64,000 nt of DNA, taken from positions 701,821 to 765,820 of the forward strand of contig OY970178.1 in NCBI GenBank assembly GCA_963707915.1, given 5' to 3'. Below the pieces are notes generated by a model. It saw nothing but the letters and a program-made list of their open reading frames with translations. It was not told the DNA's origin and made no database searches. This stretch comes from Candidatus Eiseniibacteriota bacterium (GTDB lineage Bacteria; Eisenbacteria; RBG-16-71-46). Within the stretch, counting starts at the first letter, position 1. Each line of letters starts with the position of its first letter. Positions 2,936 to 40,857 of the stretch are shown here, piece after piece. Made by a program: the position numbers and the translations under genes.

Positions 2936-5899
2936 ATGAACGAGTCCAGGTGGCGGACCGTGGCGGCGGTGGTGGCGGTGTCGGCGATGGCCGCATGCAT
3001 CGCGGGCGCGCAGGTCGCGCCGCGGGCCCCGGCCGCGCCTCCGGCCGCTGCGACCGTGGGCGACCTGCGTATCGCGCAGGCCGAGCTCGATCGGCGCGGG
3101 CAGATGACGATCTCGGACTACAAGGCCCGCACGGGCAGCGACCTGCCGGCCGAGTTCCAGCCCCTCATGCGCCGCCAGATCCTCGAGAGCCTCATCCGCC
3201 GCGACCTGCTCACGCTCGAGGCCAGGCGCCGCGGGCTGCTGGCCAGCGAGCAGGAGGCCGAGGCCCAGCTCAAGAAGGACCCGTTCTTCCAGGTGAACGG
3301 GCGTTTCGATCCCGCGCGATACGAGGCGGCCCGTCTCCAGAACCCCGCCCTGCTGGCGAGCACCCTGCAGAACCTGCGGGCGACCCTCGGCGCGCAGGTT
3401 CTCATCGAGCGGGTGCAGAAGGAGAAGGCGCCGGGCGAAGCCCGGCTGCGCGCCCGGGCCGCCCGCGCGCTCACCCGCGCCTCCATCGACTACCTCGCCT
3501 TCCGCACTCCCGATTTCGACGACACGCCGACCGAGCCGCGCGAGATCGACGTGCTGAACGAGTATCGCGCCCATGCCGCCGACTACCTCCAACCGGCGCG
3601 CGCCGTGCTTTCCATCGTCTTCGTCGATCAGCCGGAGCTCCCCGCCGCCGAGGCTGCGGCCCCGGCGGCGCTCGCGGCCTGGAGCGCCCGCATGAAGCAG
3701 CGCGCCGACAGCGTCCTTGCCGCGGTCGCCGGTGGCGCGACGCTGGAGACGGCCTCGGTGGACCTCGGCGGCCCGCGCCCGAACCAGGTCGTCCTGCCCG
3801 GCAACTTCCCGGGCTACTGGCGCGGCGACCCCGCGACGAACGCCGCCCTCTTCGCGTCCCCGGCCGGCACCGTCCTGCCCCGGCCGGTACCGGCGCAGAA
3901 GGGCTGGCTGGTCGTGCGTACCGACGAGGTCGAGCCGGCCCACACGCGGCCGCTCGAGGAGGTCGCCCGCGAGATCCGTTCGCGGCTGCGCTCCGGGCAG
4001 CGCGCGGCGCTCGATGAGCGCGAGCTCCGGGCACTGTACGGCGAGGTGCGGGACAGCCTGAAGGTGACGGCGTATCGGCTGCGATACGCCGTCGCCGACA
4101 CCGCCGTCGTCGCGGTCGCCCGGCCGACCGCGGCGGAGGTCGAGCGGTACTACCGCGGTCACCTGGCCGACTATTCCTCGTTCAGCAGCCGGACGGGAGG
4201 CGTCGTGGCCCGGAGTCTCGACGAGGTGGAGGGCGACGTGCGGGCGCGGATGCTGAGCGAGCGCCGGTTCGAGCAGTCCCGCGTGCTCGCGAGCCAGCTG
4301 GCCGACACCTGGGCGCGCGGCCGGCGGGACGCGGCGCTCGAGCGGCGGTTGCGGACATGGGACGGTGACCCGGTCGTCCCGGGCCTGCCGGCGGATAGCG
4401 GGAGCCTGGGGGCGATGCTGGGGGACACGCTGGCGGGCCGCGCGGGCGCGCTCGGGTCCGGCCTCGCTCGTGCCACGCGGGGTTGGGTCGCGTTCGACAT
4501 CTACCAGGAGGTCCCGGGACACGTGCCGTCGTTCGAGCAGGCCCGCAAGGACCTCGCGGACCGCCGGGCCGCGCGGCGGCTCGCGCGCGAGGAGGAGGGG
4601 GCGCGACGGCTCTACGATTCCTCGCCGCAGCGATTCACCGGGGCACCCGTCATCCACTATTCGCGCGCGTTCGTGCCCATCCCGAAGGCGCTCACGATCC
4701 ACCTCACGCGGGCGGAGGTCGAACGGTTCCACCGCGACCACATGGATCTCTTCTCGGCCCCCGAGTTGGTGCGCGCGAGCCACATCCTCATCAGCCCGCG
4801 CGACTCGACGCCGGCGGCCGACCGCGAGGCCCGGGCCCGGGCCGACAGCCTGCTCGCCCGCCTGCGCGAGGGTGAGGACTTCGCGGAGATGGCGGCGCGG
4901 GTGACCGACGACCCGGCCACGAAGGATACCGGCGGGGATCTCGGCACGTTCGGACGCGGCGCGATGCTGCCCGAGATCGAGCGCGCCGCGTTCGCGATGC
5001 GTCCCGGGGACCTGAGCCCCGCGCCGGTCCGCAGCCCGGTCGGCTATCACCTCATCAAGACGCGGGAATACGTGCCGATGGTCGCGCAGCCCCTGGCGCA
5101 CATCTACTCCGACGTCGCCGAGATGGCGGCCGAGCAGAAGGCGGACTCCGTGGCGGCCCGGCGCGCCGACAGCCTGCTGCGCGTCCTGAAGAACGCCGGC
5201 CAGGCGCGCGAGGCGGCGAGGCGCATGGACCTCACGACCTACTCCTACCAGTACTCGATCGGCGAGTGGAGCAAGAACCCGCCGAACCTCCAGGCCTACT
5301 ACCAGCAGCTCGAGCGGCTGGCGGTCGGGCAGCTCGTCCCGCTGCACCCCCGGATCGGCGCACTGGGCTACGCGGTGACCTGGGTGGACAGCATCAGCCC
5401 GCCCGGCCCGGCGAGCTGGGAGAACGCCCGTGACCGGGCGCTCGAGGCCTACCGTGCCGACGGGGCCCTGCGCACGCTCACGGCCAAGCGGGTCGAGCTG
5501 GATTCCCTCCTGCAGGGCGGCTGGTCGTTCGACAGCATCGGCGCGCTCTGGGGCGGACTGCGGCACGCCGCGGACGTCGCTCCGGGCCAGACCATCGCCG
5601 GGATCGGCACCAGCGGCGCGGTGGACACGTTGATCTTCGGGCTCCACGGCACCGACGGTCTCGCGCCCGGCGTCCTCAGCGACTGGGTCACGCTCCCGGC
5701 CGGAGTCCTTCGCCTGCGCACGAAAGAGATCCGGCCGCCGGACGCGGGCGCCCTGACGACCCGGGTGGAGACCGAGCGCCGGACCGAGACGGAGCGTGCG
5801 CTGGTCGGCTTCTTCGAGGACCTCAAGAAGCGCTACCCCGTGCGGATCCTGGACCGCGGGCTGCGCGACGTGACGTTGCCTCCGCCGCCCACGCGCTGA
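2936..5899 (+). CDS. Periplasmic peptidyl-prolyl cis-trans isomerase, SurA/PpiD-like (parvulin domain) chaperone
   Basis: 987-aa ORF; N-terminal signal/TM (VAAVVAVSAMAACIAGAQ); SurA-N-like region; parvulin-type PPIase motif (HILISPRD...GGDLGTFGRGAMLPEIERAAFAMRPGDLS...GYHLIK); RBS aagggagag upstream. Confidence 0.75.
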   Translation: MNESRWRTVAAVVAVSAMAACIAGAQVAPRAPAAPPAAATVGDLRIAQAELDRRGQMTISDYKARTGSDLPAEFQPLMRRQILESLIRRDLLTLEARRRGLLASEQEAEAQLKKDPFFQVNGRFDPARYEAARLQNPALLASTLQNLRATLGAQVLIERVQKEKAPGEARLRARAARALTRASIDYLAFRTPDFDDTPTEPREIDVLNEYRAHAADYLQPARAVLSIVFVDQPELPAAEAAAPAALAAWSARMKQRADSVLAAVAGGATLETASVDLGGPRPNQVVLPGNFPGYWRGDPATNAALFASPAGTVLPRPVPAQKGWLVVRTDEVEPAHTRPLEEVAREIRSRLRSGQRAALDERELRALYGEVRDSLKVTAYRLRYAVADTAVVAVARPTAAEVERYYRGHLADYSSFSSRTGGVVARSLDEVEGDVRARMLSERRFEQSRVLASQLADTWARGRRDAALERRLRTWDGDPVVPGLPADSGSLGAMLGDTLAGRAGALGSGLARATRGWVAFDIYQEVPGHVPSFEQARKDLADRRAARRLAREEEGARRLYDSSPQRFTGAPVIHYSRAFVPIPKALTIHLTRAEVERFHRDHMDLFSAPELVRASHILISPRDSTPAADREARARADSLLARLREGEDFAEMAARVTDDPATKDTGGDLGTFGRGAMLPEIERAAFAMRPGDLSPAPVRSPVGYHLIKTREYVPMVAQPLAHIYSDVAEMAAEQKADSVAARRADSLLRVLKNAGQAREAARRMDLTTYSYQYSIGEWSKNPPNLQAYYQQLERLAVGQLVPLHPRIGALGYAVTWVDSISPPGPASWENARDRALEAYRADGALRTLTAKRVELDSLLQGGWSFDSIGALWGGLRHAADVAPGQTIAGIGTSGAVDTLIFGLHGTDGLAPGVLSDWVTLPAGVLRLRTKEIRPPDAGALTTRVETERRTETERALVGFFEDLKKRYPVRILDRGLRDVTLPPPPTR

Positions 5900-12520: not shown

Positions 12521-13506
12521 GCACCGTGGCGGTGCTGGGGGCCGGCTCCTGGGGAACGACGCTGGCGATCCACCTGTGCCGGGCCGGGTCCGACGTCCGG
12601 CTCTGGTGCAACGTGCAGGCGGACCTCGAGGCCATGCTCCGCGACCGGGAGAACCGGAAGTTTTTGGCTGGCATCAGGCTCCCCGATGGGGTTAAGGTTC
12701 TACCGGAGCTGGAGGCCGCGCTCGAGTCGGCGGATTTCACGTTTTACGTGGTGCCCTCGCAGGCGGTCCGCGAGGTGGCGCGCAAGGTCGCTCTCGTCGG
12801 GCACGGCGGCGTGCCGGTGTGCGCGGCCAAGGGCCTCGAGCTCGGCAGCCTCAAGCGCATGAGCGAGGTGCTCTCGGAGTGCCTCGGCGATCCCGGCCCG
12901 GTGGTCCTCACGGGCCCGAGCCACGCCGAGGAGGTCAGTCGCGGCATCCCGACCACGGTGGTGGCCGCCGCGGCGGACGAATCGCGGGGCCGGGCGGTGC
13001 AGTTGCTGTGCTCGACACCGGCGTTCCGCGTCTACACGAACACCGACGTCGTCGGCTGCGAGTACGCCGCGGCGTTGAAGAACGTCATGGCGATCGCCGC
13101 CGGGGTGTGCGACGGCATCGGCTGGGGGGACAACACCAAGGGCGCGCTGCTCACGCGGGGGCTGGCCGAGATCTCGCGACTGGGCGTCGCACTCGGCGGG
13201 CGCCGCGAGACCTTCTTCGGGCTCGCGGGCCTGGGGGACCTGATCACGACGGCCATGAGCCGCCATAGCCGGAACCGGCACGTGGGGGAGGAGATCGGGC
13301 GCGGCCGCCCGCTCGCCGACGTGCTGGGGGACATGGTGATGGTCGCGGAAGGCGTGACCACCGCCCGCGCGGCCCGCGACCTGGGCCGGGCACACGAGGT
13401 CGAGTTGCCGATCACGGAACAGGTGTGCGCGATGCTGTTCGAGGGCCGCAGCCCCCGCGAGGCGGTGCAGAGCCTCATGACGCGAGACCTGAAGAGCGAG
13501 CAGTGA
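12517..13506 (+). CDS. gpsA: NAD(P)H-dependent glycerol-3-phosphate dehydrogenase GpsA
   Basis: Rossmann motif VLGAGSWGT; GpsA core (KGLE, GPSHAEEV, YTNTDVVGCEYAAALKNVMAIAAG); ATG overlaps plsY stop (ATGA). Confidence 0.9.
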   Translation: MSTVAVLGAGSWGTTLAIHLCRAGSDVRLWCNVQADLEAMLRDRENRKFLAGIRLPDGVKVLPELEAALESADFTFYVVPSQAVREVARKVALVGHGGVPVCAAKGLELGSLKRMSEVLSECLGDPGPVVLTGPSHAEEVSRGIPTTVVAAAADESRGRAVQLLCSTPAFRVYTNTDVVGCEYAAALKNVMAIAAGVCDGIGWGDNTKGALLTRGLAEISRLGVALGGRRETFFGLAGLGDLITTAMSRHSRNRHVGEEIGRGRPLADVLGDMVMVAEGVTTARAARDLGRAHEVELPITEQVCAMLFEGRSPREAVQSLMTRDLKSEQ

Positions 13507-13958
13507 AACCCGCATCGCCCGCGCCACGCCGCGGCGGGACCGGCACGGGCCGGCAGGGGAGGATCGAATTGTCGCCGCTCAAGACGGAACCCGAGTCCGA
13601 GTCCAGGCTCTACCGGCCCATCAGCGATGTCGCCGAGGTCGTCGGCGTGAAGCCGCACGTGCTGCGTTACTGGGAGACGCAGTTCAGCATGCTGCGCCCC
13701 AAGAAGAACCGGGCCGGGAACCGCATGTACCGGCCCGACGAGGTGAAGCTGCTGTTCCGGATCAAGGAGCTGCTCTATGACCGGCGCTTCACCATCGCCG
13801 GTGCGAAGCGGCACCTGCTGGACCTGCGCAAGGAGCCCGCGCCGCAGCAGGTGGAACTGGTCTTCGGCGAGGCCGAGAAGAAGCTCGCGATCCACGAGGT
13901 GAAGACCGAGCTCAAGCAACTCCTCAGCCGCCTGCGCAAGCCGGGGCTGCACGCCTGA
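13503..13958 (+). CDS. MerR-family transcriptional regulator
   Basis: HTH resembling MerR family ([22 protein letters not shown]...NRMYRPDEV) followed by coiled-coil; start uncertain (GTG 13503 overlapping gpsA stop, or TTG near 13570). Confidence 0.65.
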
Positions 13959-13988
13959 TCGGCGCCCCGGCCCCGCCCGGACGCCCAC

Positions 13989-14017
13989 TTGCGCGATGGG
14001 CCGCGGTCGCATAGATT
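13989..14017 (+). promoter_or_regulatory. Putative promoter for tRNA-Pro(GGG) (TTGCGC-N17-TAGATT)
   Basis: -35-like TTGCGC 13989-13994, 17-nt spacer, -10-like TAGATT 14012-14017, 19 nt upstream of tRNA 5' end. Confidence 0.25.
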
Positions 14018-14036
14018 CACGTCGCAACGCATCGGT

Positions 14037-14113
14037 CGGGGCGTAGCGCAGCCCGGTAGCGCACCTGCATGGGGGGCAGGGGGTCGAAGGTTCAAATCCT
14101 TTCGCCCCGACCA
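14037..14113 (+). tRNA. tRNA-Pro (anticodon GGG)
   Basis: 77-nt cloverleaf: acceptor CGGGGCG/CGCCCCG, D-arm GCGC-AGCCCGGTA-GCGC, anticodon stem CCTGC/GCAGG with loop ATGGGGG (U33, G37), T-arm GAAGG-TTCAAAT-CCTTT, encoded CCA. Confidence 0.9.
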
Positions 14114-14200
14114 CTTTCACTGCGGCGTTCCCCACGCCGCCCGGCGCACCCCGCGCCTCCCGCCTCGCCCGCCCCGCGCCTTGACCGCGCTCCGTTCGTC

Positions 14201-14228
14201 GTGTTACGAAGTGCGCGAAAGGTCACAC
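14201..14228 (+). promoter_or_regulatory. Candidate NikR operator: imperfect palindrome GTGTTAC-N14-GTCACAC ending immediately before the nikR ATG
   Basis: Half-sites at 14201-14207 and 14222-14228; right half differs at one position from the exact reverse complement GTAACAC; resembles the NikR box consensus GTGTTAC-N13/14-GTAACAC as I recall it. Confidence 0.4.
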
Positions 14229-14229
14229 C

Positions 14230-14646
14230 ATGAACAGACCCCCGCTCACCCGGTTCACCATCTCGATGCCACGCGTCCTGGCCGGGCAACTCGACTCCAT
14301 GGCCAGGGCCAAGGGCTACGCCAACCGCTCCCAGGCGGTCGCGGACATGGTCCGCGCCCACCTGCTGGAACATCGCGCGCAGGCCGGGACCCACGAGATC
14401 GCCGGCACCATCACGCTGGTCTACGACCACCACCGGCGGAACATCCAGGCGCTCCTGACGAACCTCCAGCACGACCACGGCGACCTCATCGTGGCCACGC
14501 TGCACGTCCACCTGAGCCACCACGACTGCATGGAGGTGCTCGCGGTGCGCGGGCCGGCGGATGCCGTGAAGCGCCTGGCCGACCGCCTCACCGCCGCGAA
14601 GGGTGTCACGCACGGCCGGCTGACCGTGACGACGACCGGCGAGTAG
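14230..14646 (+). CDS. nikR: Nickel-responsive regulator NikR (ribbon-helix-helix plus C-terminal metal-binding domain)
   Basis: N-terminal RHH (RFTISMPRVLAGQLDSMARAKGYANRSQAVADMVR) and C-terminal His/Cys-rich domain (HVHLSHHDCMEVLAVRG). Confidence 0.85.
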   Translation: MNRPPLTRFTISMPRVLAGQLDSMARAKGYANRSQAVADMVRAHLLEHRAQAGTHEIAGTITLVYDHHRRNIQALLTNLQHDHGDLIVATLHVHLSHHDCMEVLAVRGPADAVKRLADRLTAAKGVTHGRLTVTTTGE

Positions 14647-14697
14647 CCCCGCGATCGCGCGGCGGCTGCCACCCGGCCCCGAGAAGGAGGGACCCCA

Positions 14698-15690
14698 GTG
14701 CACATCCCCGACGGCTTCCTCGACGCGAAGACGGCGGTGACGACCGGCGTGCTGGCGACCGCCGGCCTGGGGCTGGCGCTGGCAGCCGTGCGTCGCACCG
14801 TCCCCCCGCGGCGGATTCCGTTGATCGGCCTGGCGGCGGCCTTCGTCTTCGCCGCGCAGATGCTCAACTTCCCGGTCGCGGGCGGGACCTCGGGGCACCT
14901 CATCGGAGCCGTGCTCGCGGCGGTGCTGCTCGGTCCGGCCGCCGCGGTGCTGGTCATGAGCGCCGTGCTCATCCTGCAGTGCCTGATGTTCGCCGACGGG
15001 GGCGTGACGGCGCTCGGCGCGAACCTGTTCAACATGGCGCTGGTCGCGCCGACCGTGGGCTACGTCGTCTACCGCGTCCTGCGACGCGTCGCGGGGGAGG
15101 GGTTGCGCGGGCGGCTCTTCGCCACGGCCTTCGCCGCCTGGTCCTCGACCGTCGCCGCCGCGCTCTCCTGCGCCGGGCAGCTCGCGCTGTCGGGCACCGT
15201 CCCGCTGCGGGCCGCGCTGCCCGCGATGGGCGGCGTCCACATGTTCATCGGCCTCGGCGAGGCCGTCATCACCACCCTCGTGGTCGCGGCGGTCGCCCGG
15301 GCGCGCCCCGAGCTGCTGCTCGAACCGGCCGGACCGGGGCCACGGCCGCGCCTGGGCGAGCTCGCGGCGCGGGGTCTGCTGGTCGCGCTGGCGCTGGCGC
15401 TCTTCGTGGCGCCATTCGCCTCGCGCTGGCCCGACGGCCTCGAGCGGGTCGCCGCGACCCTGGGCTTCGAGCACCGGGCGGCGCCCCCCGTCCTCGCTTC
15501 CCCGCTCCGCGACTACCGCTTCCCCGGGATCGGCTCCGCCGCGCTCGCCACGGGCATCGCCGGCGGCGCCGGCACCCTGGTCGCGTTCGTCCTGGCCTGG
15601 TTGCTCGCCACCCTGCTGACGCCTTCCCGCGGCGCCGGCGCCCCGCGGGGCGGGAAGGGGCCCCATGGCGATGCGCCGCGCCCTGCTTGA
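14698..15690 (+). CDS. cbiM: ECF transporter substrate-specific component CbiM/NikM with C-terminal PDGLE-motif domain
   Basis: Canonical CbiM N-terminus MHIPDGFLD (GTG start translated as M); multi-TM; C-terminal extension containing WPDGLERVA (PDGLE-domain-like); RBS aaggaggga. Confidence 0.85.
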   Translation: MHIPDGFLDAKTAVTTGVLATAGLGLALAAVRRTVPPRRIPLIGLAAAFVFAAQMLNFPVAGGTSGHLIGAVLAAVLLGPAAAVLVMSAVLILQCLMFADGGVTALGANLFNMALVAPTVGYVVYRVLRRVAGEGLRGRLFATAFAAWSSTVAAALSCAGQLALSGTVPLRAALPAMGGVHMFIGLGEAVITTLVVAAVARARPELLLEPAGPGPRPRLGELAARGLLVALALALFVAPFASRWPDGLERVAATLGFEHRAAPPVLASPLRDYRFPGIGSAALATGIAGGAGTLVAFVLAWLLATLLTPSRGAGAPRGGKGPHGDAPRPA

Positions 15691-16285
15691 GCCGTACCAG
15701 CACCGCCCGAGCGCGATCCACCGGCTCCCGGCGGGGGTCAAGGCCGGCGCGGCGCTCGCGTTCGTGCTCGCCGTCGTTCTGCTGCCCCGCGCGTCGTGGG
15801 CCGCCTACGGGGCCGGGGCGGGGCTGCTGCTGCTGGTCGCCGGGCTCTCGCGCATCGCGCCGGCGGCGCTCGCCCGCCGGCTCCTGCTGGTCGAGCCCTT
15901 CGCCCTCGGCGTCGCGCTGCTCACGCTCCTGCAGCCGGACGGGGTCCGGGTCTTCGCCGTCACGCTGACCCGGAGCACGCTGTGCCTGTCCTGCATGGTG
16001 CTGCTCTCCGCCACGACGCGCTTCTCCGCCGTCCTCGGCGTGCTCCGGCGCGTCCGCGTCCCGTCCCTGCTGGTCACCACGCTGGCGCTCATGCACCGCT
16101 ACCTCTTCGTGCTCGCCGACGAGGGCGGCCGCATGGCGCGCGCCCGTCGCAGCCGCACCTTCACCGCGGACCGCGCGTCGGCCTGGCGCTCGTCCGCCTC
16201 GGTCATCGCGCACCTCTTCGTGCGCAGCAGCGAGCGCGCCGAGCGCATCTACGCGGCGATGTGTGCGCGGGGCTGGAGGACATGA
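15665..16285 (+). CDS. cbiQ: ECF transporter transmembrane (T) component CbiQ/NikQ
   Basis: 206-aa hydrophobic protein with CbiQ-like Arg-rich C-terminal region; overlaps cbiM by 26 nt and cbiO start. Confidence 0.75.
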   Translation: MAMRRALLEPYQHRPSAIHRLPAGVKAGAALAFVLAVVLLPRASWAAYGAGAGLLLLVAGLSRIAPAALARRLLLVEPFALGVALLTLLQPDGVRVFAVTLTRSTLCLSCMVLLSATTRFSAVLGVLRRVRVPSLLVTTLALMHRYLFVLADEGGRMARARRSRTFTADRASAWRSSASVIAHLFVRSSERAERIYAAMCARGWRT

Positions 16286-17030
16286 ACGCGCTGGAGGTCC
16301 GGGGCCTCGGCTACCGCTACCCCGACGGCACGACCGCCCTTCACGACGTCCGATTCGACGTGGCCGAAGGCGAACGCGTGGCGCTCATCGGTCCCAACGG
16401 CGCCGGCAAGTCCACGCTGCTGCTCCACCTCAACGGGCTGCTGCCCGAGCGTGCGGCCGCGGTCCCCGCCGTCCACGTCTTCGGCAACCCGGTCGCCGAG
16501 CCCCACCTGGCGGCCATCCGGGCCCGCGTCGGACTGCTGTTCCAGGACCCGGACGACCAGATCTTCTGCCCGACCGTGTGGGAGGACGTCGCGTTCGGCC
16601 CGCAGCAGCTCGGCCTGCGCGGGGCCGACCTCGCCGCCCGCGTGAACGCGGGCCCTCGACCAGGTCGGCCTCGCGGGCTTCGACGAGCGCCTGCCCCATC
16701 ACCTCAGCCGGGGCGAGAAGCGCCGTGTCTGCCTGGCGGGCCTGCTCGCCTGCGAGGCCCGCCTGCTGGCGCTGGACGAGCCGACCAGCGACCTCGACCC
16801 GCGCGGCCGCCGGGAGCTGAAGGGCCTGCTCGCGAACCTCCCGGTGGCCCAGGTGATCGCGACCCACGACCTCGAGCTGGTGGTCGAGCTCTGCCCGCGC
16901 GTGATCGTGCTCGACCGGGGGAGCGTGGTGGCACAGGGGCCGACGCGCGGAGCTGCTCGCGGACGAGGACCTGATGCTGGCGCACGGCCTCGAGCGACCG
17001 CACGTCCTCCGCCACCGGCATCCGCACTGA
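16282..17030 (+). pseudogene. cbiO: ECF transporter ATPase CbiO/NikO, disrupted by two +1 frameshifts (pseudogene or sequence error)
   Basis: Walker A GPNGAGKST and Q-loop LLFQDPDDQ in frame 1 (16282 to about 16647); signature LSRGEKRR, Walker B LLALDEPTSDLD, H-loop IATHDLE in frame 2 (about 16652-16948); C-terminus ELLADEDLMLAHGLERPH in frame 0 to stop 17028-17030. Confidence 0.8.
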
Positions 17031-17092
17031 GCCCGCGGCGCCCCGGGCGCGGGCTTGCAAGTTGCCGGTCCGCGCCGCAAAGTGACTCCGAC

Positions 17093-17914
17093 ATGCTCAC
17101 CTGGATGCTGTATCTCGCCGCCGACCGGCTGGTCCGCGCGCTGCCCGCCGCGGCGGCCGACCGCCTGGCCGTGGGGATCGCGCGGCTGGTCTTCGCGCTG
17201 CGGGTGCCGGCCCGTGCCCGCCTCGAGGAGAACCTGGCGCGGCTGCTCGCGGGCGAGCCCGGGGCGCCGTTCGACGCCGTGGCGCGCGAGGCGTTCGACA
17301 ACTTCGCGAGAAACTTCGTCGACTTCCTGAGGCTCGGCCACGCTCCGCCCGGCGCCCTGGCCGGGGCGGTCGAGGTGCACGGCGCGGAACACCTCGAGGC
17401 CGCGCGCAACTCGGGGCGCGGCGTGATCCTGCTGTCGGCGCACCTCGGCAACTGGGAGCTGGGCGCCGCCTGGCTCGCCGCCGGCGGCACGCCGGTCCAC
17501 CTGGTCGCGCGTCCGCACGGGAGTCCGCGGGTCGAGCGCTTCTACGCGCGCCGCCGCCGCGCCTGGGGCGTGCGCCTGATGCCCGAGCGGCCGCTCTGGC
17601 GCCCGGCGGCCGCCGCCCTTCGCCGCCGCGAGTGGGTCGCCCTGATGGCGGATCGCGGGGCGCCCGGACCGCAAACGGGCCGGCGCGCCTCGGTCTGTGC
17701 CTGGGCCGCGGTGCTGGCCCGGCGCACCGGCGCCCTGGTGCTCCCGGCGGTGATCGTGCGCCGGCCCGGCGGACGCTACGCGCTCCACTTCGAGCATCCG
17801 CTCGAGCCCGCCGCGGTGCGCGCCGACGGCTTCGTCGAGAGCCTGCGCCGTCACCTGCGACAGCATCCGCGGCAGTGGTCCGCGTTCGAGCCCCTGCCGG
17901 AGGGCCTGGCCTGA
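17093..17914 (+). CDS. Lysophospholipid/lipid A acyltransferase family protein (HtrB/LpxL-like)
   Basis: LPLAT-type motifs (GVILLSAHLGNWELG, ADRGAPGP, LPAVIVRRPGGRY); ATG 17093. Confidence 0.7.
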   Translation: MLTWMLYLAADRLVRALPAAAADRLAVGIARLVFALRVPARARLEENLARLLAGEPGAPFDAVAREAFDNFARNFVDFLRLGHAPPGALAGAVEVHGAEHLEAARNSGRGVILLSAHLGNWELGAAWLAAGGTPVHLVARPHGSPRVERFYARRRRAWGVRLMPERPLWRPAAAALRRREWVALMADRGAPGPQTGRRASVCAWAAVLARRTGALVLPAVIVRRPGGRYALHFEHPLEPAAVRADGFVESLRRHLRQHPRQWSAFEPLPEGLA

Positions 17915-18660
17915 TGCGTCTCGCCGCACTCGTTCCCGCGTACCAGGCGGCCGCGAAGCTCGGCGACGTGCTGCTGCGGCTCGCCGCGCTCGAGCAGCCT
18001 CCGGCCGTGCTGGTGGTGGATGACGGCTCGCCCGACGACACCGCCGAGGTCGCGCGACGGCACGGCGCCCGCGTGCACTCCTTCGCGACGAACCGCGGCA
18101 AGGGACACGCCCTACTGGCGGGCTTCGCCGCGCTCCGCGACGAGTTCGACGCGGTGGTGACGCTGGACGCCGACGGCCAGCACCCGCCCGAGTGCCTGCC
18201 CGCCCTGGTGCGCGCGGCGGAGCGCGGCGCGGACCTGGTGCTGGGGACGCGGGCGCGCACCTCCGACATGCCGCTGGCGCGCCGCTTCGCGAACGCGTTC
18301 TCCTCGCGGTGGGCGACCTGGCTCGCCGGGCAGCGCGTCTCCGACAGCCAGTGCGGCTACCGCCTCCACTCGAGCCGCCTGCTCGAACGCACACCGCTCA
18401 CGCCCGGTCGCTACGAGGTCGAGACCGAGATGGTGGTGCGCGCTGCGCGCCTCGGCTTCCGCATCGCCGAGGTCGAGATCCCGACGATCTACGGCGAGGA
18501 GCGCAGCCAGGTCCGCGCCTTCCAGGACGTGCCACGCATCATCGGCACGCTGCTGCGCCTCACCGGCGAGGGCGTGATGCCGCCCGCCGCGATGCGCGCG
18601 GCGCACCGGGCCGGGATCGCGGGGCCACGCTCCGCCGGAGCGGGAGGGACGGTCCGGTGA
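17914..18660 (+). CDS. Family 2 glycosyltransferase (polyprenol-phosphate/dolichol-phosphate glycosyltransferase-like)
   Basis: GT2 motifs (VVDDGSPDDT, TLDADGQHPP, QCGYRL); ATG overlaps upstream stop. Confidence 0.8.
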   Translation: MRLAALVPAYQAAAKLGDVLLRLAALEQPPAVLVVDDGSPDDTAEVARRHGARVHSFATNRGKGHALLAGFAALRDEFDAVVTLDADGQHPPECLPALVRAAERGADLVLGTRARTSDMPLARRFANAFSSRWATWLAGQRVSDSQCGYRLHSSRLLERTPLTPGRYEVETEMVVRAARLGFRIAEVEIPTIYGEERSQVRAFQDVPRIIGTLLRLTGEGVMPPAAMRAAHRAGIAGPRSAGAGGTVR

Positions 18661-33818: not shown

Positions 33819-34086
33819 CCGGGGCCGTCACGGCGCGGCGGCGTCCTTCGCCGGCCCGGGACCCGCGGCCGGGCGATCGTCCGCGTCCTTTCGCGCGGTG
33901 GGCGACAGGCCGCCGTGCTCATCCACCGGCGGGCGCCGCTGACCCTGCTTCCGCCACGCCGACTCCCGCGCTCGTCACCCGATTGCACCCTTCCCACGGC
34001 ATGCGCGCGCGGTGTACTCTTCCCGCTTCCGCCGCCAGCCCATGGCGGCCATCCATTTTGGCGCCACGCGCCTCGGGAGGTCTTCG

Positions 34087-35595
34087 ATGGCAGCACAGCC
34101 CGCCGTCCCCACGTACGCCCCGCGCGGCTACGAGTTCGCCGACGCGGGCCTGGCCCGCAACTGGATCGGCGGCGAGTGGCGCGATTCGTCCACCGGCGCC
34201 ACCCTGGACGTCGAGAACCCCCGCCACGGCCGCACGATGGGCCGGGTGGTCGTCTCGCCCCCGGCCGACGTGGACGCCGCCGTGCAGGCGGCCCGTGCCG
34301 CCCTGCCGGGCTGGCGCGCGCTGGCGCTGCGCGAGCGCGCCCAGGTGCTCTACCGCCTCAAGGCCATCCTCGAGCGCGACATGGAAGAGCTGTGCTGGCT
34401 GCTCTCCGCCGAGAACGGCAAGGTCTACAGCGAGGCCCTCGGCGACGTCGGCAAGGGCATCGAGTGCATCGAGTTCGCGGCCTCGCTCGCGATGGGCGGC
34501 GCCGGACCGCAGCTCGACGTGAGCCGCGGCGTGAACTGCAAGGTCAGCTACGAGCCGCTCGGCGTGGTCGCCGGCATCACGCCGTTCAACTTCCCGATGA
34601 TGGTGCCGCTCTGGATGATCCCGAATGCGCTGATGGGCGGCAACGCCTTCATCCTGAAGCCCGCGTCCAGCGTCCCCTTCGGCCCGACCCGCATCGCCGC
34701 CGCGTTCGAGGAGGCCGGCCTGCCCCGGGGGATCCTCAACATCGTCAACGGGCGCCGCGAGGTGGTGAGCGCCATCGTCCAGCACCCCGGCATCGCCGCC
34801 GTGCAGTTCGTCGGCTCGACCGCGGTCGCGAAGAGCCTCTACGCGCAGGGCGCGTCCCTCGGCAAGCGCATGATGTGCCTGGGCTCGGCGAAGAACCACG
34901 CCATCGTGGTGCCCGACGCCGATCCCGAGCTCACCGCCTCGACCATGGTGGCCTCGGCGTACGGCTGCGCGGGCCAGCGCTGCATGGCCGCCACGCTCAT
35001 GGTCGCCGTCGGCGACGTGCAGCACATCATCGACGACATGGCCCGGCGCACGCGCCTGCTGAAGCTCGGCCAGGACATGGGCCCGATCATCACCCGCGAG
35101 GACCACGCGCGCATCCTGGCGCACATCGACCGGGCCGAGGCGATGGGCGCCCGGATCCTGGTGGACGGCCGCAAGGCCACCGTCGACGGCTGCGCCGGAG
35201 GCCACTGGATCGGCCCGACGCTCCTCGATGGCGTCACCCCGGACATGCCGTGCGCCCGCGAGGAGATCTTCGGGCCGGTGTTCGGCATCGTGCACACCCG
35301 GACGCTGGACGAGGCCATCGACTTCGCCAACGGCAGCCCTTACGGCAACGGCGGCGCCATCTTCACGCAGAGCGGCAACGTCGCCCGGATCGCGGCCGAG
35401 CGGCTCGACGTCGGCATGTTCGGCGTGAACATCGGCATCCCGGTGCCGCGCGAGCCGTTCGCCTTCGGCGGCTGGAAGGACAGCGGCTTCGCCCACATGG
35501 ACATCACCGGCCTGGACGGCTTCCGCTTCTGGACCCGTACCAAGAAGACCACCGAGAAGTGGGCGCAGCAGGCCGGCGGATCGTGGATGTCGTGA
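34087..35595 (+). CDS. mmsA: CoA-acylating (methyl)malonate-semialdehyde dehydrogenase
   Basis: ALDH superfamily; MMSDH-type features (catalytic Cys in GQRCMA, GSAKNHAIVVPDAD); RBS gggagg. Confidence 0.85.
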   Translation: MAAQPAVPTYAPRGYEFADAGLARNWIGGEWRDSSTGATLDVENPRHGRTMGRVVVSPPADVDAAVQAARAALPGWRALALRERAQVLYRLKAILERDMEELCWLLSAENGKVYSEALGDVGKGIECIEFAASLAMGGAGPQLDVSRGVNCKVSYEPLGVVAGITPFNFPMMVPLWMIPNALMGGNAFILKPASSVPFGPTRIAAAFEEAGLPRGILNIVNGRREVVSAIVQHPGIAAVQFVGSTAVAKSLYAQGASLGKRMMCLGSAKNHAIVVPDADPELTASTMVASAYGCAGQRCMAATLMVAVGDVQHIIDDMARRTRLLKLGQDMGPIITREDHARILAHIDRAEAMGARILVDGRKATVDGCAGGHWIGPTLLDGVTPDMPCAREEIFGPVFGIVHTRTLDEAIDFANGSPYGNGGAIFTQSGNVARIAAERLDVGMFGVNIGIPVPREPFAFGGWKDSGFAHMDITGLDGFRFWTRTKKTTEKWAQQAGGSWMS

Positions 35596-35727
35596 GCCCG
35601 GCCCGCCGGCGGGGCGGGGCGCTTCGGCTGGACCGGTAGGTTCACGCGCGTGGCATCGCCGGCGTCCGCGCGACGGCTTCGATCGGCACGGGCTCGATCG
35701 GTTTACGTCTCACTGGAGGCTTCCGCC

Positions 35728-37116
35728 ATGCGGGTGCTCATCAAGAACGGCACCGTCACGACCTCGGTCGACTCCTGCAAGGCCGACGTATGGATCGACG
35801 ACGGGACCATCGTCGCGGTCGCCGCCCCCTCGGCCCGCGCCCGCTTCGAGGCGGACCGCGAGATCGACGCCACCGGCAAGCTGGTGATGCCGGGCGGCAT
35901 CGACGTCCACACCCACCTCGACATGCCCTTCATGGGGACGGTGTCCAAGGACGACTTCGAGACCGGCACGATCGCCGCGGCCCACGGCGGCACGACCACG
36001 ATCATCGACTTCGCCATCCAGGCGCGCGGCGCGGCGCTGCGGGCCGGCCTCGACGCCTGGCACGCCAAGGCCGAGGGCAAGGCGGTCATCGATTACGGTT
36101 TCCACATGATCATGTCCGACGTCAACCCGGCCACGCTCGACGAGATGCAGGGGCTGGCCGGCGAGGGCATCACCTCCTACAAGCTGTTCACGGCCTACCC
36201 GGGCGCGCTCTACTCGGACGACGGCCAGATCCTCCGCGCGCTGCAGCGGGCCCGGGAGGTCGGGGCGCTGGTGCAGATGCACGCCGAGAACGGCATCGCC
36301 ATCAACGCGCTCATCGAGCAGGCCGTCGCGCGCGGCGAGACCGCGCCCCGCCACCACGCCCTCAGCCGGCCGGAGATCGCCGAGGCCGAGGCCACGCACC
36401 GTTCGCTGTGCCTCGCCGAGATCGCGGGCGCACCCATCTACATCGTGCACCTCACCGCCACGCGCGCGCTCGAGGCGGTGACGCGCTTCCGCGAGCGCGG
36501 GCTGCCGGTGTACGCCGAGACCTGCCCCCAGTACCTCTATTGCTCGCTCGACGACATCTCGCGCGAGGGGTTCGAGGGCGCCAAGTTCGTCTGCAGCCCG
36601 CCGGTCCGGCCGAAGGCCATGCAGGACGACCTCTGGCGCGGCCTCGCGAACGGCAACCTCCAGGTGGTGGCCACCGACCATTGCCCGTTCGACTTCGCCA
36701 CCGACAAGCAGATGGGGCGCGAGGTGTTCACCCGGATCCCCAACGGCATGCCGACCATCGAGACGCGGCTGCACCTGCTGTGGGAGGGCGTGCACACCGG
36801 CCGCATCACCGCGCAGCGCTTCGTCGACGTCGTCTCGACCGCCCCGGCGAAGCTGTTCGGGCTCTATCCCCGCAAGGGCACCATCGCCCCCGGGGCCGAC
36901 GCCGACCTGGTGGTCTGGGACCCCGCGAAGCGCCAGGACCTCTCGGTCGCCCACATGCACATGCGCGTCGACTACTCACCCTACGAGGGCAAGGTGGTGC
37001 AGGGCGCTCCCGACCAGGTCCTGTCCCGCGGCCGTGTCATCGTCGACGGCGGCACGTTCCTCGGCCAGCGCGGCACCGGCCGGTTCCTCAAGCGCGCGGC
37101 GTTTTCGCCCATCTAG
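35728..37116 (+). CDS. Dihydropyrimidinase / D-hydantoinase
   Basis: Cyclic amidohydrolase motifs (PGGIDVHTHLDMPFMG, carbamylated-Lys region TSYKLFTAY, VATDHCPF). Confidence 0.85.
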   Translation: MRVLIKNGTVTTSVDSCKADVWIDDGTIVAVAAPSARARFEADREIDATGKLVMPGGIDVHTHLDMPFMGTVSKDDFETGTIAAAHGGTTTIIDFAIQARGAALRAGLDAWHAKAEGKAVIDYGFHMIMSDVNPATLDEMQGLAGEGITSYKLFTAYPGALYSDDGQILRALQRAREVGALVQMHAENGIAINALIEQAVARGETAPRHHALSRPEIAEAEATHRSLCLAEIAGAPIYIVHLTATRALEAVTRFRERGLPVYAETCPQYLYCSLDDISREGFEGAKFVCSPPVRPKAMQDDLWRGLANGNLQVVATDHCPFDFATDKQMGREVFTRIPNGMPTIETRLHLLWEGVHTGRITAQRFVDVVSTAPAKLFGLYPRKGTIAPGADADLVVWDPAKRQDLSVAHMHMRVDYSPYEGKVVQGAPDQVLSRGRVIVDGGTFLGQRGTGRFLKRAAFSPI

Positions 37117-37125
37117 GAGAGCACG

Positions 37126-37998
37126 ATGAGCCCTGTCGTCCGCTGTGGCCTGATCCAGTGCAGCAACCCGCTGAACGATCCGTCGCGTCCGATCGCCGAG
37201 ATCCAGCGGGCGATGATCGACAAGCACCTGCCGTTCATCGAGGCGGCGGGGGAGAAGAAGGTCCAGATCCTCGGCTTCCAGGAGATCTTCAACGGGCCGT
37301 ACTTCTGCCCGAGCCAGGACCCCCGGTGGTACGAGGCGGCCGAGCCCGTCCCGGGGCCCACCACCGAGCTGATGGCGGGCTACGCACGGCGCTTCGAGAT
37401 GGCGATGGTGGTGCCGGTGTACGAGCAGGCCGCGCGCGGCGTGTTCTTCAACACCGCGGCGGTCCTCGACGCCGATGGCCGCTATCTCGGCAAGTACCGC
37501 AAGCAGCACATCCCGCACGTCGCCGGCTTCTGGGAGAAGTTCTTCTTCACCCCGGGGGACGGCGGCTACCCGGTGTTCGCCACGCGCTACGCCCGGGTCG
37601 GCGTGTACATCTGCTACGACCGCCACTTCCCCGAGGGCGCGCGCTGCCTCGGCCTGAACGGGGCCGAGATCGTCTTCAACCCGAGCGCGACCGTGGCAAG
37701 CGTCTCGCGGCACCTGTGGAAGCTCGAGCAACCCGCGCACGCGGTGGCCAACGGCTACTACGTGGCCGCGTCGAACCGCGTCGGCACCGAGCCGCCGTGG
37801 AACATCGGCCGCTTCTTCGGCAACTCGTACTTCGTGAGCCCCCGTGGCCAGATCCTCGCCGAGGCCAGCGAGGACCAGGACGAACTGCTGGTCGCCGACC
37901 TCGACCTCGCCTTCATCGACGAGGTCCGCAAGTCCTGGCAGTTCTACCGTGACCGTCGGCCCGATGCGTACCACGAGATCGAGCGTCGATTCTCGTAG
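37126..37998 (+). CDS. Nitrilase-superfamily N-carbamoyl amidohydrolase (beta-ureidopropionase / N-carbamoyl-amino-acid hydrolase)
   Basis: CN-hydrolase catalytic triad context (FQE, YRKQH, VYICYDRHFPE); adjacent to dihydropyrimidinase. Confidence 0.75.
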   Translation: MSPVVRCGLIQCSNPLNDPSRPIAEIQRAMIDKHLPFIEAAGEKKVQILGFQEIFNGPYFCPSQDPRWYEAAEPVPGPTTELMAGYARRFEMAMVVPVYEQAARGVFFNTAAVLDADGRYLGKYRKQHIPHVAGFWEKFFFTPGDGGYPVFATRYARVGVYICYDRHFPEGARCLGLNGAEIVFNPSATVASVSRHLWKLEQPAHAVANGYYVAASNRVGTEPPWNIGRFFGNSYFVSPRGQILAEASEDQDELLVADLDLAFIDEVRKSWQFYRDRRPDAYHEIERRFS

Positions 37999-38055
37999 CC
38001 GCGGGCCCGCCGGCGCCCGCGGTGGCGCCGGTCCCCCGGCTTCGGCGACTGGAGA

Positions 38056-39381
38056 GTGGTGATGAACACGCAGGAGATGATCGATCTCTGCAAGCAGCAC
38101 ACGATGTACACCTGGGCGGCCACCGACCAGGTCACGCCACTGCCCGTCGCCCGCGCCCAGGGCGTCTACATCTACACGCCCGAGGGCCGGCGCATCCTCG
38201 ACTTCAACAGCGCAGCTGATGAGCGTGCTCATCGGCCACCACCACCCCCGCGTCATCGCGGCGATGAAGGCCCAGCTCGACGAGCTGATCTACGCGTACC
38301 CGCAGACCGCCACGGCGGTACGCGCGCGGCTGGGCAAGCTGATGGCCGAGGTCATCCCCGGCTTTCACACCTTCTTCTTCACGCTCGGCGGCGCCGAGGC
38401 CAACGAGAACGCCATCCGCGCCGCGCGCCTCTACACCGGGCGCCAGAAGATCCTGAGCCGCTACCGCAGCTACCACGGCGCCACCAACCTCACGATGCAG
38501 CTCACCGGCGACCCGCGCCGCTGGCCGAGCGAGCCCGGCTCCCCGGGCATCGTCCGCGTGATGGACCCGCAGCCCTACCGGTTCTCGTTCGGCAGGACCG
38601 ACGAGGAGAAGACCGCCGCGAACCTCGCCTACCTCGAGGAGATCATCGAGTACGAGGGCCCGCACACCATCGCGGCGATGATCATCGAGACGGTCACCGG
38701 CACCAACGGCGTGCTCCCGCCGCCCGCCGGCTACCTGCAGGGCCTCAAGCGGCTGCTCGAGAAGCACGGCATCCTGCTGATCTGCGACGAGGTGATGTGC
38801 GGCATGGGCCGCACCGGCAAGATGATGGCCTACGAGCACGGCGGCATCGTTCCCGACATCGTGCACGATGGCCAAGGGGCTCACCAGCTCCTACTTCCCG
38901 CTCGGCGCCATGGGCGTCTCCGACGCCATCGCCGCGCACTTCCGCAAGAACGTCTTCTGGGGCGGCCTCACCTACAACTCGCACCCGCTCGGCCTCGCCA
39001 CGGCGGAGGCGGTCATCCAGGTGATGATCGACGAGAAGATGATCGAGAACGCCGCCCGGCTCGAGCGGGTGATGCGGCGGGAGATGGACCGGCTCCAGGC
39101 GAAGCACCGCTCGGTGGCCGAGGGCCGCTGCATCGGCCTGTTCGGGATGATCGACATCCGCAAGAACGCCAAGCGGCGACTCGATCGCGCCGTACAACGG
39201 CAGCCACCCGGCCATGGCGAAGCTCCAGGCGTTCTTCCGCGAGAACGGCCTGTTCACCTTCGTGCGCTGGTCCAGCTTCACCTGCAAGCCGCCGCTGTGC
39301 ATCACCGAGGAGCAGCTGCTCGAGGGCTTCGAGATCATCGATCGCGGCCTCGACATCACCGACGCGGCGTTCGAAGGATAG
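38056..39381 (+). pseudogene. Class-III (omega) aminotransferase, likely beta-alanine aminotransferase; disrupted by three +1 frameshifts
   Basis: Four in-frame segments that concatenate into a roughly 440-aa class-III aminotransferase: frame 1 38056-38211, frame 2 38213-38863, frame 0 38868-39173, frame 1 39175-39381 (stop TAG 39379-39381). Confidence 0.8.
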
Positions 39382-39462
39382 GAGAGAAAGGCGTGACCGC
39401 AACACCCCGGTGCGAGCTCGCGGCAGAGACCGTGACTTCCCCGCTCCACGGCCGCAACCCCC

Positions 39463-40857
39463 ATGGCGATTTCGCACCTGTCGGGAGGTGACGTGCTGAA
39501 AGCCGCAAGACGGACGACCCAGAGGCTCAAGAACCTGACGGACATGGAGGTCGGGTTCACGCTGTCCCAGGCCATCGCGGAGGCCTCGCGCTGCCTGCTG
39601 TGCCACGACGCGCCGTGCTCCAGGGGTTGCCCCGCCGGCACCGACCCGGGCACGTTCATCTGGAAGCTGCGGGTCCGGAACGTCCGCGGGGCGATCCGGA
39701 CGATCCGGCAGAACAACCCGCTGGGCGGGGTCTGCGGCGTCGCCTGCCCGGTCGAGCGCCTGTGCCAGAAGAACTGCAGCGCCACCGGCATCGACCGGCC
39801 GATCGAGATCGGCCGGCTCCAGCGGTTCCTGGTCGAGCAGGGCTGGGGCATGGGGTTCGACCCCATCGCCCAGGCGCCACCGCGGAAGGAGTCCGTGGCC
39901 ATCGTCGGGTCGGGCCCCGCCGGGCTCACCTGCGCCGTGGAACTGGCGCGCGCCGGCATCCAGGCCACGGTCTTCGAGGCCCGACCGCGACCGGGCGGCG
40001 TGCTGCGCTACGGCGTGCCCCGGTTCCGCCTGCACGAGGAGTTCCTCGACCGCGAGCTCGAGGACGTCCGCAAGCTCGGCGTCACCTTCCGCTGCAACAC
40101 CACGATCCAGCGCGACCAGGCGGGACGGCTGCTCGAGAAGGGCTACGCCGCGGTGTTCATCGCCCCGGGGGTGTGGGAGCCCCGGCGCCTGCCCCTGCCG
40201 GGAGCCGGCCTCCGGAACGTGACCACGGCCACCGAGCTGCTCGCGGGGGTCCGCGCCGGCGCCGCGGCCGCGGTCGCCCGGATGGTCCGCAAGAAGAACG
40301 TCGCCATCATCGGCGGCGGCTCCGTCGCCATGGACGTCGCCAGCACCTGCAAGGCCCTCAGCGCCGCCAAGGTGTACTGCATCTGCCTCGAGAGCCTGGC
40401 CGAGATCCCGGCGTCGAAGGCCGATCTCGGCATGGCGCTCGAGAACTTCGTGGTCGTCAAGCCGCAGGCGCAGGTCACGCGGATCCTGGGACTGGCCGGC
40501 AAGGTCACCGGCGTGCAGGGCATCGAGACCGTGTGGAAGCGGCCCGGCTCGTTCGCGCCCGCCAACGCCCGGCCCGTGCCTGGCACCGAGTTCAAGCTGC
40601 GGGTCGACGCGGTGGTCTTCTCGATCGGCTCCGGCCCCGCCGCGGAGGGCCGGGAGCTCGCCGCCGGCCTCAAGACCGCCCGCGACGGGCTGATCCAGAC
40701 GAAGCGGGACGGGGTCTCCACCTCGAAGCCCGGGATCTTCGCCGGCGGCGACATCGTGCGCGGACCGGCGCTCATCGTGAACGCCGTGGCCGACGGCAAG
40801 GCGGCCGCGAAACGCATCCTCGAGTCGCTGGGCGCGGGGGAGAACCACCATGACTAG
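39463..40857 (+). CDS. preT: NAD-dependent dihydropyrimidine dehydrogenase subunit PreT (glutamate synthase small-subunit-like)
   Basis: N-terminal Fe-S cluster Cys motifs (EASRCLLCHDAPCSRGCPAGTD, CGVACPVERLCQKNC) matching E. coli PreT as I recall it; FAD/NAD Rossmann motifs (IVGSGPAGL, IIGGGSVAMD); start ATG 39463 or GTG 39493. Confidence 0.8.
   Translation: MAISHLSGGDVLKAARRTTQRLKNLTDMEVGFTLSQAIAEASRCLLCHDAPCSRGCPAGTDPGTFIWKLRVRNVRGAIRTIRQNNPLGGVCGVACPVERLCQKNCSATGIDRPIEIGRLQRFLVEQGWGMGFDPIAQAPPRKESVAIVGSGPAGLTCAVELARAGIQATVFEARPRPGGVLRYGVPRFRLHEEFLDRELEDVRKLGVTFRCNTTIQRDQAGRLLEKGYAAVFIAPGVWEPRRLPLPGAGLRNVTTATELLAGVRAGAAAAVARMVRKKNVAIIGGGSVAMDVASTCKALSAAKVYCICLESLAEIPASKADLGMALENFVVVKPQAQVTRILGLAGKVTGVQGIETVWKRPGSFAPANARPVPGTEFKLRVDAVVFSIGSGPAAEGRELAAGLKTARDGLIQTKRDGVSTSKPGIFAGGDIVRGPALIVNAVADGKAAAKRILESLGAGENHHD

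Follow-up and report, generated by a model that had tools for sequence, protein, structure and literature searches.

NikR boxes of the form GTGTTAC-[N13/14]-GTAACAC were derived from the upstream regions of delta-proteobacterial nikMQO operons (Rodionov et al. 2004, Genome Biol 5:R90, PMC545781). Such a box is a 27-28-bp inverted repeat structured like the enterobacterial NikR signal and is itself a comparative-genomics prediction; the nik(MN)QO site of G. sulfurreducens, for instance, reads GTGTTAC-[N14]-GTgACAC (Table 4, PMC545781). In E. coli, the nickel-activated NikR tetramer sets its ribbon-helix-helix (RHH) beta-strands in the major groove at each half of a 28-bp dyad (PMC4486848). The repressing NikR sites of H. 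pylori overlap the transcription start or the core promoter, and NikR also regulates its own promoter (PMC5385501).

The window considered here, that is, the whole 64-kb stretch of DNA that was analysed, carries a 28-bp imperfect palindrome next to the start of a nikR gene. Judging from the sequence, this palindrome is very probably NikR's own operator, placed over the core promoter of a nikR-nik(MN)-nikQ-nikO operon. The predicted site would add one more instance to the GTGTTAC-type NikR boxes already predicted elsewhere, from a new lineage and with nikR as the leading gene.

Loci and searches

A genome collection was scanned with a NikR alignment, which yielded 80 nikR loci totalling 587 kb, and boxes were sought in these loci at up to 2 mismatches. 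A sample of 13 closer metagenomic loci, encoding NikRs 77-91% identical to the window NikR, was added. The closest genomes are those of Candidatus Eisenbacteria MAGs, whose NikRs share 91% and 87% identity with that of the window. Within the window, boxes were searched at up to 3 mismatches on both strands and in both orientations. Promoter-like and terminator-like sites were scanned for in the region 13900-17100, and the Rfam models were run over 13000-18000.

The predicted operator and its sequence

The predicted NikR operator extends from 14201 to 14228, with no strand assigned, and consists of 28 bp with half-sites at 14201-14207 and 14222-14228. Direct reading of the window letters across it gives cGTGTTACgaagtgcgcgaaagGTCACACcATG. 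In its context the site is arranged as cGTGTTAC-gaagtgcgcgaaag-GTCACAC-c-ATG, where the 14-nt spacer gaagtgcgcgaaag occupies 14208-14221 and a single base, C14229, stands between the operator and the nikR ATG at 14230. The right half GTCACAC differs from GTAACAC, the reverse complement of the left half, by one mismatch (A to C at 14224), and 13 of the 14 positions of the NikR box consensus are matched by the window site.

A preliminary description of this DNA had placed GTGTTAC-N14-GTCACAC one base before the nikR ATG and had likened it to the NikR box consensus with one deviation in the right half. Both statements hold, the consensus being the one printed in PMC545781. The site had also been described as overlapping the nikR translation start, which is correct in that it overlaps the Shine-Dalgarno-like sequence and abuts the ATG, and has to be amended in that the ATG itself is not overlapped.

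The window site is the sole match to GTGTTAC-N13/14-GTAACAC at up to 3 mismatches in the 64 kb, both strands and both orientations included; boxes of reversed orientation, GTAACAC-N13/14-GTGTTAC, are absent from the 64-kb window at the same threshold. A site with at most 1 mismatch arose in 0 of 100 dinucleotide shuffles of the window. The number of such sites expected per window is 0.0033 by Markov-1 simulation and 0.0023 by analytical calculation, against one observed.

The NikR protein

Read from the ATG at 14230, the earliest start codon in its open reading frame, the nikR gene (14230..14646, + strand) encodes 138 aa, with an N-terminal RHH domain followed by NikR_C. The product matches Pfam NikR_C (2.4e-32) and NCBIfam NF003381 (159.6 bits, cutoff 105); the match to Pfam RHH_1 is borderline, at 20.6 bits for a cutoff of 20.5. 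The closest solved structures are those of P. horikoshii NikR (2BJ1, 1.3e-36 over residues 6-137) and E. coli NikR (1Q5V, 9e-26). HMMER places H81, H92, H94 and C100 on H76, H87, H89 and C95 of E. coli, which form the high-affinity nickel site, and all 33 aligned homologues keep these four ligands. The beta-strand R8-F-T10-I-S12 aligns with R3-V-T5-I-T7 of E. coli, R8, T10 and S12 thereby corresponding to R3, T5 and T7, which read the DNA.

Conservation across nikR loci

Of the 80 genome loci, 37 have a box directly upstream of nikR, which departs from the consensus by no more than 1 mismatch except in three of them. The 13 closer metagenomic loci all have one too, with 1 mismatch in 9 loci and 3 mismatches in 4. 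As the loci share descent and are all MAGs or metagenome contigs, these counts are not independent. The position of the box is shared as well. Counted from the first base of the site, the nikR ATG comes at exactly 29 nt in 34 of the 45 loci with a site, always with the N14 spacing, and each of the 13 metagenomic loci has its site 29 nt before the nikR start codon. A lack of conservation upstream of nikR orthologues, by which the preliminary description would have been refuted, is not what is seen; the palindrome recurs there, and in the same register. The 34 loci of identical register belong to MAGs labelled Eisenbacteria, Lentisphaerae, Verrucomicrobia, Sumerlaeota, Pirellulales and Zixibacteria.

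Over the 587 kb of the 80 nikR loci, 43 sites with at most 1 mismatch were observed against 0.05 expected, and nearly all of them immediately precede nikR or a cbiM-like gene. Every site of this quality in loci L001-L093 has a 14-nt spacer; the matches of other spacing among these loci are just two, both N12 with 2 mismatches.

The conservation is concentrated in the half-sites. Among the 8 closest distinct sequences, none of the 14 half-site positions varies, against 11 of the 14 spacer positions (Fisher p=3e-5) and 13 of the 14 positions in the interval between the predicted -35 element described below and the site (Fisher p=6e-8). Within the clade of the window the right half reads GTCACAC, with TTCACAC in its place in two lineages that are more distant. 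Since GTCACAC is typical of the clade, the single deviation is to be seen as a conserved feature of the clade and not as decay. The idea that this deviation tracks the beta-strand residues of NikR was considered and rejected, because the strand reads R-F-T-I-S here and R-F-S-V-S in L001 and L002, with the same box. The palindrome before nikR is confirmed as real, non-random and conserved in sequence and in register.

In about half of the 80 genome loci nikR has no adjoining box, or none falls within the fetched flanks, and autoregulation is therefore not universal in the family. The sites located away from nikR are mostly found upstream of cbiM-like genes, with nikR further down. In seven loci devoid of a nikR-adjacent box (L023, L027, L029, L035, L036, L077 and L078), a box is present 1-3 kb upstream of nikR and precedes a cbiM-like gene which itself stands before nikR. 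This arrangement points to operons in which the transporter genes lead and nikR is last or nearly so.

Genomic neighbourhood

A tRNA-Pro(GGG) gene occupies 14037-14113, 87 nt upstream of the operator and 116 nt before the nikR ATG. The scan of 13900-17100 detected no terminator-like site between this tRNA gene and the operator, and the former could contribute read-through transcription into the operator region. A tRNA-Pro is also located between the MerR-like gene and nikR in L001 and L002, around 3810-3890. The order gpsA, MerR-like gene, nikR, nik(MN), nikQ is conserved in Eisenbacteria-like relatives, and the metagenomic loci with enough upstream sequence have gpsA and the MerR-like gene before nikR. 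In the window, the MerR-family open reading frame at 13425-13958 comprises 177 aa when read from its GTG, for 123-149 aa in the called orthologues; given these shorter orthologues, its true start is probably further downstream.

A Pfam survey of 20 other open reading frames of the window revealed no obvious nickel-dependent enzyme. The region 34012-42091, unrelated to the operator, contains an apparent cluster for reductive pyrimidine or related amide catabolism. Its genes encode an aldehyde dehydrogenase, an amidohydrolase, a carbon-nitrogen hydrolase and a PreT/PreA-like pair, the latter with the domains Fer4_20 and Pyr_redox_2 on the one hand and DHO_dh and 4Fe-4S on the other.

Transporter genes and probable extent of the operon

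The nik(MN)-type S component (14698..15690, + strand) begins 51 nt past the nikR stop, with a GTG start and the residues MHIPDG. It consists of CbiM (Pfam, 8e-61) and a C-terminal, CbiN-like PDGLE domain (2.7e-13), all NCBIfam CbiM models remaining below their cutoffs for this open reading frame; the same CbiM-PDGLE fusion follows nikR in relatives. The T component cbiQ/nikQ (15665..16285, + strand; Pfam CbiQ 1.4e-28, TIGR02454 123.8 bits for a cutoff of 111.8) overlaps the end of cbiM by 26 nt, and the ATPase gene cbiO/nikO (16282..17030, + strand) in turn overlaps the cbiQ stop (ATGA) and runs through three frames. The parts M+PDGLE, Q and O of an ECF transporter are all in one cluster, O bearing two frameshifting insertions relative to L001 and L002. 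That the transporter may be specific for nickel rather than cobalt is suggested by its context, namely the adjoining nikR, the NikR box and the lack of a cobalamin riboswitch.

The two insertions in cbiO are of 1 nt each and were located at about 16647 and 16946 by DNA alignments to L001 and L002. The successive segments, in frames +3, +1 and +2, are 88%, 95% and 81% identical to the intact CbiO of L002 (tblastn). These insertions are the only uncompensated 1-nt coding indels relative to L001 across about 8.3 kb, and are either assembly errors or a sign that the importer ATPase was inactivated very recently, cbiO then being a pseudogene. With cbiO frameshifted twice, the importer under this control might be non-functional here. 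A further consequence of the frameshifts is an artificial open reading frame at 16844-17914, fused with a downstream lipid A acyltransferase-like gene.

In agreement with the preliminary description, which had reported no similar palindrome between nikR and cbiM, no second NikR box is present there at up to 3 mismatches. The scan of 13900-17100 found no terminator-like site in this gap, and no riboswitch was detected in it with Rfam, whose sole match over 13000-18000 is the tRNA. The order nikR-cbiM+PDGLE-cbiQ is common to the 13 metagenomic loci. Because a second box, a terminator and a riboswitch are lacking and the genes are tightly packed, nikR is likely to be co-transcribed with nik(MN), cbiQ and cbiO as a single self-repressed transcript, as the preliminary description had suggested.

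Among the alternatives, the one that survives best holds that the operator governs nikR alone, the nik(MN)QO genes being expressed from a promoter of their own in the 51-nt gap or inside nikR. The gap does carry its own Shine-Dalgarno sequence, GAAGGAGG, before cbiM, and in some related loci (L009) the box sits between nikR and the transporter genes. This explanation is nevertheless unlikely, as the gap contains no promoter-like site, in addition to lacking a terminator-like site and a NikR box, and is poorly conserved in both length and sequence among close relatives. The adjacency of nikR and cbiM on one strand is, on the contrary, maintained in most box-bearing loci, and a nickel importer free of nickel control would be unusual.

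Predicted promoter and transcription start

A strict consensus scan for promoters and terminators in 13900-17100 found nothing, and the promoter was therefore deduced from conservation across loci. In 32 of the 38 aligned sites the left half-site is preceded, at 12-15 nt, by the motif TTGAC, which is kept in close relatives while its flanks diverge. On this basis, the predicted -35 element of the window is TTGACC (14181..14186, + strand), 14 nt upstream of the left half-site. With TTGAC at a fixed distance and a spacer of 17-18 nt, a -10 element TACnnn falls in the left half-site and a TG falls at the extended -10 place. The predicted extended -10 of the window, TG-t-TACGAA (14202..14210, + strand), is separated from the -35 by 18 nt; its hexamer TACGAA (14205-14210) lies within and just past the left half-site. 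The T and A of TAC are conserved at 97-100% across the aligned sites, and the predicted hexamer is weak because it has no T at -7.

The predicted transcription start is 14218 (give or take 1 nt, + strand). This base is the A at position +17 of the site, counted from 0, which is 95% conserved and lies 7-8 nt past the predicted -10. The exact -10 element and the start near 14217/14218 are to be taken as predictions for a putative promoter of the sigma-70 type, whose hexamers are 16-18 nt apart. A Shine-Dalgarno-like AAAGG (14218..14222, + strand), which closes the spacer and takes its last G from the start of the right half, precedes the ATG by 7 nt, and most of the loci with nikR at +29 keep A[A/G]AGG here. 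The mRNA of loci of the window class would open with AAAGGUCACACC-AUG, that is, with a 12-nt leader beginning with the Shine-Dalgarno sequence.

In five loci an in-frame nikR ATG begins inside the spacer, at precisely position +17, and lacks an upstream Shine-Dalgarno sequence (sites L013:182-209, L019:3963-3990, L045:3951-3978, L056:3960-3987 and L063:3969-3996). In L013 and L056 this ATG is the sole in-frame start of nikR, and in loci with the ATG at +17 the right half-site encodes codons 2-4. The position of these start codons suggests leaderless nikR mRNAs beginning at the predicted transcription start.

In five other sites (L008:3972-3999, L018:3972-3999, L022:1814-1841, L026:3972-3999 and L030:3969-3996), the palindrome extends inward as GTGTTACCTTT...AAAGGTAACAC. 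The AAAGG adjoining the right half could therefore belong to the NikR site, besides or instead of being a Shine-Dalgarno sequence. AAAGG is mostly missing from the sites that are far from any start codon.

These features may be combined into a nucleotide-exact module of promoter, operator and start shared by several phyla, in which the half-site would double as the extended -10 (TGnTAC), the 95%-conserved A would be the start, and nikR would be translated in two modes. In the first mode, represented by the window, a 12-nt leader would open with the Shine-Dalgarno sequence; in the second, confined to a minority of lineages, the mRNA would be leaderless, with its ATG inside the operator spacer. 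We put this module forward tentatively, as something that may quite possibly hold. If it does, the same bases encode recognition by the repressor and by the promoter machinery, which would explain the frozen register.

The inverted repeat might also act as RNA, by forming a hairpin in the nikR leader that affects translation or stability. If transcription started upstream, as by read-through from tRNA-Pro, the arms could pair as a 7-bp stem around the Shine-Dalgarno sequence. We find this very improbable. The conserved -35 puts the predicted start inside the spacer, so that the left arm would not be transcribed. Paired cells amount to 92.9%, compared with 92.4% in column shuffles, 103 of 500 shuffles reaching the observed value, and 2 double-changed cells stand against 19 uncompensated deviations, including the T/C clash of this clade. 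The minimum-free-energy fold of 14195-14245 leaves the arms unpaired, with a z-score of -0.2, and Rfam has no match in 13000-18000 beyond the tRNA.

That the conservation reflects core-promoter and leader sequence only, or a chance palindrome, without any role of NikR, is scarcely credible: the left half does double as the predicted extended -10 and the right half does lie in the leader, but the halves are reverse-complementary at a fixed spacing of 14 nt, which promoter function does not require, the palindrome also occurs before cbiM-like genes 1-3 kb from nikR and before delta-proteobacterial nickel transporters (PMC545781), and about 0.003 sites per window would arise by chance.

Proposed mechanism

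We infer that the window operator is bound by NikR in a nickel-dependent manner and that the genes behind it are co-transcribed. When nickel is sufficient, the nickel-loaded NikR tetramer would place one RHH dimer on each half-site and would cover roughly positions -17 to +11, counted from the predicted start. The predicted promoter and start being inside the span of the operator, such binding would block RNA polymerase. Its exclusion would shut off both nickel import and NikR synthesis; as nikR is the first gene of the operon, repression would at the same time be negative autoregulation. When nickel is scarce, NikR would depart and the operon would be expressed. The whole 12-nt leader, Shine-Dalgarno sequence included, would be contained in the spacer and the right half-site.

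Implications

The analysis provides a well-supported regulatory annotation for an uncultured, Candidatus Eisenbacteria-like lineage. The range of the predicted GTGTTAC-type box now reaches beyond the delta-proteobacteria, to MAGs of Eisenbacteria, Lentisphaerae, Verrucomicrobia, Sumerlaeota, Pirellulales and Zixibacteria. The 38 aligned nikR-proximal sites, together with the 13 metagenomic loci, could seed a weight matrix for nickel regulons. The fixed register of promoter and operator also leads to a concrete and easily testable prediction of the transcription start. A modest added interest comes from the base-exact register across phyla, from the possible use of a half-site as extended -10 and from the putative leaderless variant. 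Apart from these points, the window operator is an ordinary site of a known kind of regulation and leaves the current understanding of NikR unchallenged.

Comparison with known NikR systems

The window box resembles that of the delta-proteobacteria in its half-sites, its inverted-repeat geometry, its span of 27-28 bp and its association with ECF transporters of the nik(MN)QO type. The likeness is closest for the G. sulfurreducens nik(MN)QO site, which has the same N14 spacing and deviates at the same half-site position. Unlike the delta-proteobacterial box, that of the window stands before nikR, the leading gene of the predicted operon, and adjoins its start codon. The hosts differ as well, with a Candidatus Eisenbacteria-like genome here and delta-proteobacteria for the published box. 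Spacing is a further difference: the sites with at most 1 mismatch in the NikR clade of the window are N14, whereas most delta-proteobacterial sites are N13 (PMC545781).

The PnikABCDE operator of E. coli, GTATGA-N16-TCATAC, at which the nickel-activated tetramer represses nickel uptake (PMC4486848), has the same 28-bp span, and the nickel ligands of the E. coli protein are conserved here. The half-sites are distinct (GTATGA in E. coli, GTGTTAC in the window), and so are the transporters, an ABC system (NikABCDE) in E. coli and an ECF system (Nik(MN)QO) in the window. The E. coli nikR gene is located downstream of the transporter genes, whereas nikR comes first in the window operon.

P. horikoshii NikR (2BJ1), whose structure is the closest by sequence, is archaeal and shares the beta-strand motif R-F-S/T-I-S. 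The NikR of H. pylori recognizes AT-rich, pseudo-palindromic sites and is pleiotropic, also activating genes, and H. pylori, unlike the window, has no nikR-nik(MN)QO operon. The window operator is nevertheless similar to the H. pylori sites in its placement, over a transcription start and core promoter, here predicted, and on the promoter of nikR itself.
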